A stretch of 30,931 nt of DNA from an uncultured delta proteobacterium (GTDB lineage Bacteria; Desulfobacterota; Binatia; UBA9968). The notes under the pieces were generated by a model, which saw nothing but the letters and a program-made list of their open reading frames with translations, did not search any database and was not told where the DNA came from. Made by a program: the position numbers and the translations under genes. Below, piece by piece: positions 6,211-29,642 of the stretch (position 1 is the first letter of the stretch; every line of letters begins with the position of its first letter). The stretch covers positions 1 through 30,931 of the forward strand of contig CAVXEP010000026.1 of NCBI GenBank assembly GCA_963760795.1, written 5' to 3'.

Positions 6211-7488
6211 TTACCAGTTTACCAGATTGACCAGTGCCAGGCTGATCCACGGGACATAGGTCACGAGCAGTGTGACCAATGCGAGCACGAGCGTGAACGG
6301 CCAGCCGGCCATGAAGACTTCCCAGAAAGGCAAACGCGCGATGGTGGCGACGGTAAATAGCACCGTGGCGACCGGCGGAGTCTGCTGGCCGACGCCGAGG
6401 TTGATGGTTACGATGATGCCGAAGTGAATCGGGTCGACGCCGATCTGGCGGATGAGCGGCATGACGATGGGGACGATCAGGATAATCGCCGCCGCCGAGT
6501 GGAGAAACATCCCGGCGATGAAAAAGAAAAAATTCAGGAAAAGCAGGATCAGGTATTTGTTCGAGGTTGTTTCAAGGATCATGCGCGCGAATTTTTGCGG
6601 GATCTGCTCGCTGGTGAGATACCAGCCGAGCACGGCGGAGGAAGCGACGATGAGCATGACCACGGCGGTCTGTCCCGTCGAATCCCGCACGACGCGTATG
6701 ATCTCGCGCGCCGGTAGCTCGCGGTAGATGAAGGCGCCAATGAGCAGCGCCGCGATCACTGCCAGGGCTGCGACCTCGGTGGCGGTGGCGATGCCGAGAA
6801 AGATTCCGCCCCAGATCACCAGCGGAATGGAAAGCGCCCAGAAAGCGTGCAGCGTGGAGATGCCCACCTGACGCAAAGAAAAATTCTGTTCCACCGGTAA
6901 ATTTAATTTGCGCGCGTAATAGTAGCTCAGCGCCATCATGCAGCCGCAGGCGATGGCGCCAGGCAAGAAGCCCGCGAAAAATAGTTTGGCGACGGACACC
7001 TCGGCCATCCAGGCGTAGATGATCATTGGGATGGAAGGAGGAATCAGGATCGCCGCCGAGGCCGCGTTGGACACGATGGCGGCGCTCAAGGCACGGGGAT
7101 AGCCGCGCTTCTCCATGGCCGGGATGACAACGTTGCCGATGGCGGCCGCATCGGCGACCGATGAGCCGGAGATCTCGCTCTGGATCATCGTCGCCACCAC
7201 CGTCACCATGGCGAGCCCGCCGCGGATGAATCCCACCAGACTATTGGCCAGGTTCACCAGACGCAGCGAGATCCCCGAAGTCTCCATCAGACCGCCGGCC
7301 AAAATAAAAAGTGGAATCGCCAACAGCGGAAAACTCGACGCGCCGGAGAACAGATTCAACGGCACCACGCTGAGCGACGCGCTACCCTTCCAGATCAGAA
7401 AGATGACGGTCGTGATCGAGAGGGCGAATCCGATGGGGACACGAATGACGGTCAAAAGAATGATTATTCCGAGGATGAGCCACTCCAC
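6211..7488 (-). CDS. dctM: TRAP transporter large permease
   Basis: LAIPLFILAG, ISGSSVAD, LIPPSIP, TATE and TPPV motifs. Confidence 0.92.
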   Translation of the reverse strand: MEWLILGIIILLTVIRVPIGFALSITTVIFLIWKGSASLSVVPLNLFSGASSFPLLAIPLFILAGGLMETSGISLRLVNLANSLVGFIRGGLAMVTVVATMIQSEISGSSVADAAAIGNVVIPAMEKRGYPRALSAAIVSNAASAAILIPPSIPMIIYAWMAEVSVAKLFFAGFLPGAIACGCMMALSYYYARKLNLPVEQNFSLRQVGISTLHAFWALSIPLVIWGGIFLGIATATEVAALAVIAALLIGAFIYRELPAREIIRVVRDSTGQTAVVMLIVASSAVLGWYLTSEQIPQKFARMILETTSNKYLILLFLNFFFFIAGMFLHSAAAIILIVPIVMPLIRQIGVDPIHFGIIVTINLGVGQQTPPVATVLFTVATIARLPFWEVFMAGWPFTLVLALVTLLVTYVPWISLALVNLVNW

Positions 7489-7979
7489 ACCGCATCAGCT
7501 CCTTTCCGGCTGCCAATGCCGAAGATAAGATGCAGCAGGCGCTGGACGCTGATCACGAGCATGACGCCGCCGGTGATCGGCAGCACGCTGTAGACCCAGC
7601 CCATTTTTACCCAGACGAGGGAAACCGCGGTCTCGTCGCCCATCTTCTGCGTGAGCCGCCAGCCGTAGTAAAAGAGCACGACTTGGAATCCCAAAACGAA
7701 AAGCTCGGCGAAGGCCTCGACCATCCTTTTTGTGTTCCGCATAAACCGGTCCACGATCATCTCGAATGCGATATGGCGCCCGTGATAGCTGGCGACGACG
7801 GCGCCGTAGAAGGTCAACCAGACCAGCAGGTAGGAAGCGAACTCATCGTACCAGGCGAGCGACGCGCCGAGCGCGTAGCGAAAAAAAACCCCCAGGCAAA
7901 CCAGGACGACCATGAGGACGAGCAGGAACATCGCCCACCACTCGACTAGATCAATGAACCGGCGGAAGATTCGCTCCAT
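7464..7979 (-). CDS. dctQ: TRAP transporter small permease
   Basis: Four TM segments with VFFRY...W.DE; lies between dctP and dctM. Confidence 0.9.
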   Translation of the reverse strand: MERIFRRFIDLVEWWAMFLLVLMVVLVCLGVFFRYALGASLAWYDEFASYLLVWLTFYGAVVASYHGRHIAFEMIVDRFMRNTKRMVEAFAELFVLGFQVVLFYYGWRLTQKMGDETAVSLVWVKMGWVYSVLPITGGVMLVISVQRLLHLIFGIGSRKGADAVWSGSSSE

Positions 7980-27143: not shown

Positions 27144-27718
27144 CGTTTGCCGTCGACCAAATCTTTGATCAGTTTACGCGCGCCTGCGCTATGCCAGTCC
27201 GCCGGTCCCCAGCCGCGCGCTAAACCTTCGCCTTTGGAACCTATGAGATAGGTCGCGGGCAATCCCCAAGCGCCATATTCCTGGCCGACTTTAGCGTCGG
27301 GATCGAGGGCGATCGGGTAGGTGAGCTTGAGTTCCTTGACGAAATCGACGGCGTCTTGTTTGCGATCTTTGACCGCCACCGCGAGGATGACAAAGTTCTT
27401 GTCCTTAAATTCTTGATAGAGCTTTTCCATCGCCGGCATCTCTTCGCGGCAAGGGACGCACCAGCTGGCCCAGAAATTCAACATGACAACCTTGCCGCGA
27501 AAGTCGCGCAAGGAGATTTTTTTGCCGTCGGGAGTGGTGAGATTGATTTCCGGTGTCGGCGCGACCTCTTTCATCGGCTGGAGAATCGGCACCGCTTTGT
27601 AGTCGACTTTGGCTGAGGACTCTGCGGCGTCGCCGTCGTGAGGTGTCCAGTCGAAAAAAATCAGCTGCACCAGACAAAGCGCGAAGAATAGATGCCGAGG
27701 CTTCATCTTCATTGTCAT
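27140..27718 (-). CDS. TlpA/ResA-family periplasmic thiol-disulfide reductase
   Basis: Signal/TM segment and NFWASWCVPCREEMP; the stop overlaps the ccdA start. True start may be 27712. Confidence 0.92.
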   Translation of the reverse strand: MTMKMKPRHLFFALCLVQLIFFDWTPHDGDAAESSAKVDYKAVPILQPMKEVAPTPEINLTTPDGKKISLRDFRGKVVMLNFWASWCVPCREEMPAMEKLYQEFKDKNFVILAVAVKDRKQDAVDFVKELKLTYPIALDPDAKVGQEYGAWGLPATYLIGSKGEGLARGWGPADWHSAGARKLIKDLVDGKR

Positions 27719-27721
27719 CGC

Positions 27722-27750
27722 ACTCTAACCAACTGTATAAAGCGGCGCAA
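27722..27750 (-). promoter_or_regulatory. Putative promoter for tlpA-ccdA (leaderless or very short leader)
   Basis: TTGCGC, 17 nt, TAGAGT, a few nt before the ATGs at 27718/27712. Confidence 0.4.
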
Positions 27751-27873
27751 TACATGCTGACTGAACCAACGGCGCGGTAAATTTGTTCCTAGGCCGGTTT
27801 CGGAGTAAAACTCGCCGCTATGCTGCCGACATGGTGTACTGAGACGGTGAAAAATTGCGGAAACGGGGTTTCT

Positions 27874-27914
27874 AAAAGCAGAAAGCCCCCCGAATCATTT
27901 CCGGAGGGCTTCTG
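27874..27914 (-). terminator. Intrinsic terminator of the small Lys-peptide transcript
   Basis: Minus strand CAGAAGCCCTCCGGA-AATGA-TTCGGGGGGCTTTCTG-CTTTT. Confidence 0.8.
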
Positions 27915-27999
27915 TGAGAGATAACCAGAACGGTTATCTGGTCGCCTGAGAGTAAGGAGGGTTTATTCCACCACCACCACAACTCCACAAATTAATTAA

Positions 28000-28047
28000 C
28001 TACTTTTTCTTTTTGGCTTTCTTTTTGGCCTTTTTCTTAGCTGCCAT
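28000..28047 (-). CDS. 15-aa lysine-rich peptide MAAKKKAKKKAKKKK
   Basis: AAGGAGGTG-ctt-ATG GCA GCT AAG AAA AAG GCC AAA AAG AAA GCC AAA AAG AAA AAG TAG; too short for the ORF track. Confidence 0.75.
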   Translation of the reverse strand: MAAKKKAKKKAKKKK

Positions 28048-28161
28048 AAGCACCTCCTTGTAAGATTAAACGGGCGGGTATTTTCTTGATAGGAAGAACA
28101 GCTTGACTCAGGCGAAGACAGTTTACTATCAGCAACCCTCCCATATTTTGTACCTGCGCAG

Positions 28162-28235
28162 AGTATAGTGACACAATTAATGGTATGTCAAGAAAAAAAT
28201 ACTATTCTACAATTTTTTTTCAGAATTTTTTCTAT
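28162..28235 (-). promoter_or_regulatory. Strong sigma70-like promoter with A/T-rich UP-like element
   Basis: TTGACA (28191-28186), 18 nt, TATACT (28167-28162); A/T tracts at 28192-28235. Confidence 0.75.
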
Positions 28236-28556: not shown

Positions 28557-29642
28557 CTACGCCTTCGCTGCGAGGATATTAAACACTCGCACCGGGCGGC
28601 TTAGCCCTTTCAATTGGAACTCCTCGAAGGCTTCGCTATCGAAGAACTCTTCCAACCGGCTCATGGTTTTTTGGTCGGTCAGGATCTGCCCGCCCTTGGC
28701 CTCGGCGCACATGCGCGCCGCGAGATTTGGCAAATTACCGACGGAGCTATAGTCCATGCGTCCCTCGAAACCGATGGTGCCCAGGGTCGCGTAGCCGGTG
28801 GCCAAGCCGACACCGAGGTCGAGATCGTAGCCCTTCTTCGTCCAAGCGATACGCAGTTCTTTGGCCCGATCGCGCATCTCGATCGCCATGCTGACGGCTT
28901 TGCGGCCATGGTCTTCGCAGGGCAGCGGATCGTTGAAGATCACCACGATGCCGTCGCCGACGAAACGTTCCAGTGTGCCTTCAAATTTGAAAATCAGCTT
29001 GCCCATCTCGGCGTGATAATCGCGCAGCAGGTCCATGACTTCCTCGGGCTCGGCATTGTCCGAGAACGCCGTGAAGCCGCGCAAGTCGAGGAATACCACG
29101 GTGATCTCGCGGCGATGGGTTCTGAACAGGTTTTCTTCTTTCTCCAGGATGGTCTCGGCGATCTGCGGCGAGAGGTAGCGTTTCAAACGCTCCATGCGCT
29201 TCAGCTCGCCGACTTGTTGCTGGACTTTCTCCGCCAGCGTGCGATTCCACTCGCCCAGTTGGTCGTGCAGCTCTTTGATGCGCAGCATGGCGCGCACCCG
29301 CGCTAATAACTCGAAAGAATCGAACGGCTTGGTGACATAATCGTCGGCGCCGGCGTCGAGACCGGCGACCTTGTCTTCCTGGGTCGCTTTGGCGGTTAAG
29401 AGGATCACCGGCACGCTCTTGTGGCGCTCGCTCTGCCGTAGCGCCCGAACGACTTCGAGGCCGTTCATCCTCGGCATCATGTAGTCGAGCAGGATGATGT
29501 CCGGACTGAAACTATCAGCCTTCGCCAGCGCGTCGATGCCGTCGGTGGCGCGCTCGAGGACATATTCGTACTCCATCAGCTCTTGTTCGAGCAGATCGAG
29601 ATTAAACGGTTCGTCGTCGACGATTAAGATTTTGTTTGGCAT
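28557..29642 (-). CDS. Response-regulator receiver fused to a class III nucleotidyl (adenylate/guanylate) cyclase
   Basis: Receiver: ILIVDD, LLDYMMP, LTA, KPF. A coiled-coil linker leads to the cyclase: [23 protein letters not shown]. Confidence 0.93.

Follow-up and report, generated by a model that had tools for sequence, protein, structure and literature searches.

In a stretch of DNA of 30,931 nucleotides (nt) from an uncultured delta proteobacterium of the Binatia (contig CAVXEP010000026.1 of assembly GCA_963760795.1), hereafter called the window, a short open reading frame (sORF) on the minus strand encodes the oligolysine peptide MAAKKKAKKKAKKKK, with ten lysines and four alanines among its 15 residues. 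The ATG lies at 28047-28045, the 15 sense codons extend to 28003 and a TAG follows at 28002-28000. The pattern of conservation strongly supports translation, and we regard the sORF as a micro-protein gene carried on a small messenger RNA (mRNA) that may head a new, widespread family. As to its function, we give about even probability to a real monocistronic micro-gene making an abundant polycation, which would bind cellular polyanions by charge.

The evidence for coding comes from homologues that were recovered by blastn, hence by similarity of the DNA and not of the peptide. ATG, frame and stop are kept in 26/26 of these homologues, whose products are 15-19 amino acids (aa) long, and the ATG is also the start in all 42 sequences of a further alignment (A2). 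Among the 45 sense positions, the variable columns at codon positions 1, 2 and 3 number 2, 1 and 12, against 82/112 variable columns in the 5' untranslated region (UTR) and 96/128 in the 3' UTR, i.e. 73-75%. Gaps within the ORF of the 42-sequence alignment measure 3, 6, 9 or 12 nt, all multiples of three. In 76 distinct tiny ORFs the lysine-type codons are AAR 710 times and AAY never (304 of the AAR codons are fixed by the search pattern and 406 are free), and alanine is spelled GCA, GCC, GCT and GCG 119, 64, 54 and 27 times. The three-base periodicity together with the exclusion of AAY argues that neither a purine tract nor a protein-binding A-R-N motif explains the ORF. Translation, although inferred, is thus strongly supported by the kept start, frame and stop, the variation at third positions and the AAR bias.

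A preliminary description of the locus, made from the letters of the window, had proposed a stand-alone selected gene, and these figures bear it out. It had further argued for selected coding from the alternation of AAA and AAG codons and from the lack of A-runs longer than five. The run length holds in the window and is not conserved among the homologues, where the longest A-run is 5 in 18/42 and 6-10 in the other 24; the alternation is not conserved either, and the argument does not stand.

The sORF stands in what appears to be a complete transcription unit on the minus strand. A sigma-70-type promoter with 11/12 consensus matches (TTGACA at 28191-28186, an 18-nt spacer and TATACT at 28167-28162) is preceded by an A/T-rich, UP-like tract at about 28234-28192, of which the block ATTTTTTTCTTGACATAC is unchanged in 26 aligned full-length homologues; the A/T tract upstream of the -35 hexamer is kept in 20 further family members. 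Across the 6.58-Mb assembly (57% G+C, completeness 88.9%, contamination 6.15%), the form TTGACA-N16-18-TATA[AC]T was found at two places, each a copy of the sORF locus, and no other promoter there comes as near to the sigma-70 consensus. From the spacing of the promoter, transcription is predicted to start near 28155. The intrinsic terminator found by terminator prediction occupies 27912-27874, with a 13-bp stem at 27912-27882 followed by a T-run. The predicted product would be a monocistronic RNA of about 280 nt, from about 28155 to 27874, with a leader of about 105 nt and a 3' UTR of about 125 nt.

The Shine-Dalgarno sequence (SD) AAGGAGGTG at 28059-28051 is set off from the ATG by the 3-nt spacer CTT. 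A scan of both strands found it once in the window, and all of its 9 nt are complementary to the 16S 3' end of the same genome (...GGATCACCTCCTTTCT, also written ...CACCTCCTT); for the family consensus the complementarity is 10 nt, and the core AAGGAGG is unchanged in 42/42 sequences of A2. Other frames of the predicted RNA in the ORF list of the window are short and unconserved, none of them credible. The genome holds 15,015 SD-led ORFs of 8-40 aa, and a lysine content of at least 50% is reached only by the two copies of the sORF. The preliminary description had named the lysine-rich 15-aa ORF, the best SD of the window, the near-consensus promoter with its UP-like tract, the intrinsic terminator and the sORF as the only credible frame between the two, all of which we confirmed; the strand is minus and the terminator stem covaries.

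The second copy arises because the last 3.76 kb of the window (C26:27176-30931) matches the end of another contig of the assembly (C25:189403-185642, reversed) at 97.3% identity, and the 341-nt sORF unit is 100% identical between the two. Most simply this is probably an overlap of contig ends, from two strains mixed in the assembly, or a strain variant and not a paralogue.

With the 341-nt unit as query, blastn gave matches in 27 of the 41 related genomes examined, which divide into 21/24 in the genus, 5/5 in a second family (at 68-72% identity) and 0/11 in a third. A search for the SD-plus-ORF pattern found it in 52/121 genomes of the order, with 51/87 in family f1, 0/28 in f3 and 0/5 in f2, the last because the f2 peptide differs at a position of the pattern. 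The reversed pattern, run over the order as a control, gave 0 matches. Of five f1 genomes without the pattern, four still have a homologue by blastn, in which the peptide takes a variant form (MATKKKAAKKKAKKKKK, MAAKKKAAKKKAKKKKK, MAKKKAKKKKKR or MAAKKAKKKAKKKK), and in an even sample of the phylum the pattern was found in 2/401 genomes, both f1. Matching contigs are labelled 'Candidatus Binatia'. Unpublished genomes are counted here: G004 in the blastn, alignment, fold, coding and order-pattern sets, G487 and G490 in the order-pattern set. A pattern search of related genomes with a check on synonymous variation had been suggested in the preliminary description, and the variation among the homologues lies at third codon positions; the same description had held that the gene would fall if homologues did not retain SD, start and frame, whereas these are retained as given above.

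Searches against known families were negative, in keeping with the preliminary description. At gathering scores no Rfam family matched the window; an 861-nt region gave a single chance row (E = 9.8), and the sORF transcripts at 17 loci of other lineages matched no family. Since the protein search takes sequences of 20 aa or more, ten longer relatives (20-38 aa) stood in for the 15-aa peptide: they matched 0 NCBIfam families, gave only two chance-level rows with E > 5 in Pfam and were not found in a collection of 15 billion proteins. In the literature searched we found no description of oligolysine micro-ORFs or micro-genes, and the literal peptide strings returned 0 papers. Genes this short lie below the length cut-offs of gene callers.

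Parts of the stretch are present in 20 public sequencing runs from 12 soil and rhizosphere studies, and six of these runs are RNA libraries. One of them (X17, a run of 8.8 M letters) holds a contig of 225 nt that covers 27908-28132 with 0 mismatches, and another from a different study (X19) holds one of 209 nt over 27908-28116 at a depth of 53.5. In X16 several contigs cross the ORF with a summed depth of up to 217, some of them from relatives, and in X10 positions 27700-28201 are covered at a depth of 3-16. These contigs tell of presence in RNA libraries and not of RNA ends or levels, and we take them as weakly supportive. The common end of the X17 and X19 contigs at 27908 was considered as the 3' end of the RNA and set aside, as contigs may also break where strains differ in the terminator stem; parts of the stretch that lack cover were given no weight.

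To look at the RNA itself we combined an RNAalifold consensus with explicit pair counts on the 42 sequences, and compared duplex energies with those of shuffled partners. A long-range helix, P1, is predicted by RNAalifold between CGCCTGAG in the leader (RNA CGCCUGAG; 28114-28107, minus strand) and CTCAGGCG in the 3' UTR (RNA CUCAGGCG; 27950-27943). Here 99.1% of the cells are paired and 7/8 pairs are invariant, while at the end of the helix 35 sequences have CG, 2 have UA, 2 have UG and 3 are unpaired. In two distant variants with ORFs of 29-30 aa (L032 and L059) the closing helix is respelled as UGCCUG-U-GAGAGAGGG with CCCUCUUUC-CAGGCA, and their minimum free energy (MFE) folds again enclose the ORF in a loop. 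The closed-loop topology is supported by complementarity, strict conservation and this one independent respelling, and not by covariation within the family.

Further into the 5' end, the G-box GGGAGGGTT (RNA GGGAGGGUU; 28142-28134, minus) is complementary to the 3'-UTR box AACCCTCC. The box that resembles an anti-SD, AACCCTCCTTA (RNA AACCCUCCUUA, core AACCCUCC; 27963-27953, minus), is complementary to either the G-box or the SD; each of these two pairings holds in 95.2% of the cells, with compensatory changes in neither. The stretch of it that would pair with the G-box is 27963-27956. The mean energy of the duplex with the G-box is -16.4 kcal/mol against -8.7 +/- 2.4 for shuffled partners, and that with the SD is -11.1 against -6.6 +/- 2.1 kcal/mol, which favours the G-box as partner. 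P1 and the pairing of G-box and anti-SD-like box cross, and would make a pseudoknot if both formed together.

The remaining elements of the minus-strand RNA are more local. A C-rich box, CCCGCCCG at 28078-28071, lies 5' of the SD and is conserved as CCCRCCC; RNAalifold pairs it with the SD. Directly 3' of the stop codon a GG-repeat box, GTGGAGTTGTGGTGGTGGTGG at 27988-27968, is kept as GGNGGNGG, with at least four GG doublets and U/C exchanges between them, a pattern that would fit a two-tier RNA G-quadruplex. None of the duplexes C-box/SD, C-box/GG-box and GG-box/anti-SD-like box is better than with shuffled partners. A stem-loop in the 3' UTR, AGATAACC-GTTCT-GGTTATCT at 27939-27919, was found from the pair counts and has changes on both sides in 7/8 pairs with 97.0% of the cells paired; its loop consensus is GTTCT, with T/C exchanges in few sequences. 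In the terminator stem 6/10 tested pairs show changes on both sides. The MFE of the window transcript has a z of -1.6, no support from energy alone.

We suggest that these elements would work together as follows. The strong promoter would drive an RNA of about 280 nt ending at the intrinsic terminator, in which the leader block CGCCUGAG would pair with the 3'-UTR block CUCAGGCG and the G-box GGGAGGGUU could pair with the anti-SD-like AACCCUCC. This would hold the two ends of the mRNA together, with the purine-rich coding part as an unstructured loop between them, which we infer would probably stabilise the message and leave the 9-nt SD free at the edge of the loop. Ribosomes would translate the loop into MAAKKKAKKKAKKKK in large amounts, and removal of the initiator methionine, as expected before alanine, would give a peptide of 14 residues with ten lysines and a charge of about +10. 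Such a peptide would most likely act by its charge on polyanions, with RNA and the ribosome as the first candidate and DNA or polyphosphate as the second; both abundance and target are putative. Relatives hold charge, composition and shortness, while their length (12-19 aa) and the positions of alanine drift, and non-specific electrostatic binding therefore fits better than a shaped pocket. RNA, ribosomal and other, makes up the largest pool of polyanions in the cell, and very small conserved basic proteins of bacteria are mostly ribosomal (bTHX, bL37, bS22); RNA and the ribosome are ranked first for these reasons.

Several observations weigh against a charge-acting peptide from a simple gene. 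A free 14-mer might be degraded quickly. The nucleotides of the ORF are conserved (15/45 columns variable) above what a neutral coding model needs, so that an extra constraint at the RNA level on the A-rich tract is possible. Blocks of the UTRs vary no more than the ORF does, for which a simple peptide gene offers no explanation, and neither P1 nor the pairing of G-box and anti-SD-like box shows compensatory changes in the 42 sequences. One X16 contig extends to 28226, upstream of the -35 hexamer, and may reflect read-through or carry-over of DNA; read-through from the 361-aa ORF upstream could explain it. Across phyla, ten neighbouring proteins gave no synteny with ribosomal genes. Replacement of bS21 by the peptide was rejected, as 60/61 genomes of the order have bS21 whether or not they carry the sORF. 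The idea that the RNA mimics the 16S 3' domain was set aside as unsupported: ACAAGGTAGCCGT is common to the family consensus and the 16S of the same genome, and the longest shared words in the 42 sequences, 8-12 nt, are within the 8-13 nt of 300 shuffles.

The invariance of UTR blocks across two families speaks for the view that the RNA is the effector, as a ribosome-binding or dual-function small RNA whose SD, G-box and anti-SD-like CCCUCCUUA contact the 30S subunit or the SD regions of other mRNAs. The mini-ORF would then mainly load ribosomes and set the stability of the RNA, as proposed for rreB, with the peptide secondary or one of two functions. Complementarity in cis between the anti-SD-like box and the SD, at the pairing frequency and energies given above, is in keeping with this, and rreB itself is a precedent of a 30S-binding mRNA with a stability that depends on the start codon (PMC5711450). 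We nevertheless consider it unlikely, as the codon-level evidence is of selection on the encoded residues, the structures of the UTRs differ across phyla while the oligolysine ORF recurs, and the complementarity to 16S is 9-10 nt and not the 16-17 nt of the rre genes.

On another view, stalling on the ten lysine codons, by low Lys-tRNA or by the polybasic chain itself, would refold the RNA and govern read-through into the tlpA-ccdA-folE-like genes or some other gene; a translation-stall sensor was among the candidate roles of the preliminary description. Lysine takes up 10/15 codons, a terminator follows the ORF, and the G-rich and C-rich boxes could pair alternatively. Such a sensor is disfavoured by the downstream neighbours at the 89 loci listed: when the longest ORF is taken, a crude measure, 44 lie on the opposite strand and 37 on the same one, and 8 loci have none. 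The families of the neighbours are unrelated to lysine and vary between lineages; ten of them across phyla are hydantoinase B, radical SAM, RmuC, VWA, RsmB, MBL, sulfatase, exonuclease, Der/EngA and enolase. Moreover the terminator, about 90 nt beyond the stop, is a covarying hairpin of its own with pairing helices that miss the ORF, and in the genus the tlpA-like gene downstream has a conserved promoter-like motif of its own, so that we judge a leader role very unlikely. A similarly poor prospect, and a slightly poorer one, is a non-coding RNA with an incidental ORF, in which the (AAN)n tract and the U-tailed terminator bind an Hfq-like or S1-like protein. A-R-N repeats do bind the distal face of Hfq, and the coding tract repeats A-A-N without interruption ahead of a U-tailed terminator; against this, N is always a purine by the codon counts above, codon positions 1 and 2 do not drift to G, the third bases of alanine codons vary four-fold, and 26/26 homologues preserve ATG, SD spacing, frame and stop, with indels in multiples of three. 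Only the small size speaks for a chance intergenic ORF without function, to which we give practically no probability in view of the conservation across families, the unique composition and a promoter form confined to the locus.

The best architectural match among known systems is rreB/rreR, conserved stand-alone small mRNAs of alpha-proteobacteria with sORFs of 14 or 18 codons, an RpoD-like promoter and a terminator (Hahn et al. 2016, PMC5711450). According to that report, rreB is 165 nt long with a 14-aa sORF, binds 30S and depends on its start codon for stability. What defines the rre genes is that 16-17 nt, the first base of a GTG start among them, are complementary to the 16S 3' end, which keeps translation weak; ATG is the start only in Azospirillum, and RreB is reported to have aromatic residues and a peptide function given as unknown (PMC5711450). 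The unit of the window is like rreB/rreR in being a small mRNA that stands alone, with a promoter and a terminator of its own, a sORF in the range of 14-18 codons, a strong SD and a genomic context that is not conserved between lineages. It is unlike them in its 9-10 nt of complementarity, its ATG at normal spacing, its length of about 280 nt, its phylum and its oligolysine peptide, and so lacks the defining rre features.

On the side of the peptide, the ribosomal proteins bTHX, bL37, bS22 and eL41 are 24-33 residues long, dominated by lysine and arginine, highly expressed and were long missed by annotation. They have specific sequences with mixed K/R, glycine and aromatics, whereas the sORF peptide conserves composition only. 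Histone-H1-like Lys/Ala repeats are known from the C-terminal tails of Hc1 and HU. Like these repeats and AlgP (PMC9239181), the sORF peptide is a polycation of AKKK type such as binds DNA or polyphosphate by charge; the H1-like proteins are tails or arrays of tens to hundreds of residues, often on a folded domain, while the sORF peptide is free and 15 aa long. The locus has no long Lys/Ala array on a larger protein, the product being 15 aa in total with stop and terminator conserved. Attenuator leaders of amino-acid operons (his, phe, thr) have a short ORF rich in one codon family and then a terminator; unlike them, the sORF is followed by no conserved biosynthetic operon in the same orientation, and no alternative of terminator and antiterminator overlaps it. 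Dual-function small RNAs such as Spot 42/SpfP (15 aa), SgrS/SgrT and RNAIII/hld combine a small structured RNA with a tiny peptide, and compared with these the sORF peptide is of a different kind and its RNA has no Rfam match.

Oligolysine micro-ORFs are found in other lineages as well. A scan of the genomes of 185,579 species for GGAGG-N4-9-ATGGCNNCNAARAARAARGCNAAR gave at least 120 stretches, those listed all coming from metagenome-assembled genomes; the class itself may be far bigger, as the pattern fixes the N-terminus. At 89 of these stretches a stop closes the ORF within 30 codons (11-30 aa), and the other 31 are N-termini of ordinary lysine-rich proteins. The form MATKKKAKKKKH occurs at 40 or more loci labelled Acidobacteriota/Terriglobia, with MATKKKAKKKKKH, MAAKKKAKKKR and MATKKKAKKKATKKKH as further micro-ORFs of Acidobacteriota. 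Verrucomicrobiia have MAAKKKAKKKKKK, Limisphaerales MAAKKKAKKAAKKKK, Brevinema MAAKKKAKKAKKKK and Patescibacteria MAAKKKAKKAKKKTAKKKAR and MAAKKKAKKAKKGGKKRI, and forms of 21-27 aa are present in Planctomycetia, Gammaproteobacteria, Bacteriovoracaceae, Rhodospirillaceae and Auribacterota. These tiny ORFs have promoter-like sequence and a GGAGG SD before them and a hairpin-plus-T-run terminator after them. The consensus fold of the acidobacterial RNA has only local hairpins, unlike that of the Binatia RNA. As the UTR structures differ across phyla while the oligolysine ORF recurs, the common element is the composition of the peptide and not the fold of the RNA. Common ancestry, exchange of the gene or convergence may explain its recurrence.

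In the order of one acidobacterial carrier the pattern is present in 10/81 genomes, six of which have two distinct loci: G521 (C5:199726-199762 and C9:322798-322834), G547, G551, G569, G582 and G599. The two loci differ in their ribosome-binding context, GGAGGAACCTTC-ATG at one and GGAGAATAGAAAC-ATG at the other, and a verrucomicrobial genome (G522) likewise has two. In acidobacterial MATKKKAKKKKH transcripts (of the L029-L146 type) the loop and 3' arm of the terminator read AAGCACCUCUU, which resembles an anti-SD, and an anti-SD-like sequence in the 3' region is thus common to the acidobacterial and Binatia RNAs. Two matches to the Acido-Lenti-1 RNA, L033:7271-7316(+) and 7454-7501(-), scored 47.5 and 50.3 bits against a gathering score of 37 and are some 4.5 kb away from the acidobacterial sORF of that contig.

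The micro-gene is near-universal in one bacterial family and is present in RNA libraries of soil and rhizosphere, and analogous genes occur in several phyla. Were the peptide produced as strongly as its promoter and SD suggest, an oligocation of +10 would be a major uncounted counter-ion for ribosomes, nucleoid or polyphosphate in abundant soil bacteria. Further, we speculate that oligolysine genes of 11-20 residues might be a widespread unrecognised class, a genetically encoded 'polyamine' of Binatia, Terriglobia, Verrucomicrobiota, Patescibacteria and others, made on ribosomes under expression signals that are among the strongest of the genome. By coating or bridging ribosomal RNA, nucleoid or polyphosphate it would tune translation or condensation globally, and the Binatia mRNA would be a closed, possibly pseudoknotted riboregulator with SD-like and anti-SD-like boxes through which the output of peptide is coupled to the supply of free 30S. 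We hold this wider proposal to be possible and offer it tentatively, at less than even probability. With regard to a substitute for polyamines, two matches to the Spermine_synth domain above cut-off were found, in proteins of 622 and 1148 aa. The gene is also a clean test case for parting the function of a peptide from that of the RNA in a 'small mRNA', and its layout (SD, ATG, 10-20 Lys/Ala codons, stop, terminator) is a search recipe for more genes of the kind.

Some loci that carry a unit of Binatia or acidobacterial type bear the label of another phylum, namely L042 (Chloroflexota), L092 and L108 (Syntrophobacter) and L029 (Dormiibacterota). These labels look like mis-assignment or binning error; L042 and L092 are the same contigs as the genus-level relatives G005 and G021.

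In the window, the upstream neighbour of the sORF is an ORF of 361 aa at 28557-29642 on the minus strand, in which a response-regulator receiver seems, by eye, to be joined to an adenylate/guanylate-cyclase-like domain. Beyond the sORF terminator, at about 27725-27765 (minus), the motif GTATTGCGYCGC...CAGTTGGTTAGAGT is conserved in several members of the genus and resembles a separate promoter (TTGCGC-17-TAGAGT) for tlpA-ccdA-folE-like genes, and a TlpA-like ORF at 27718-27140 lies 3' of it.

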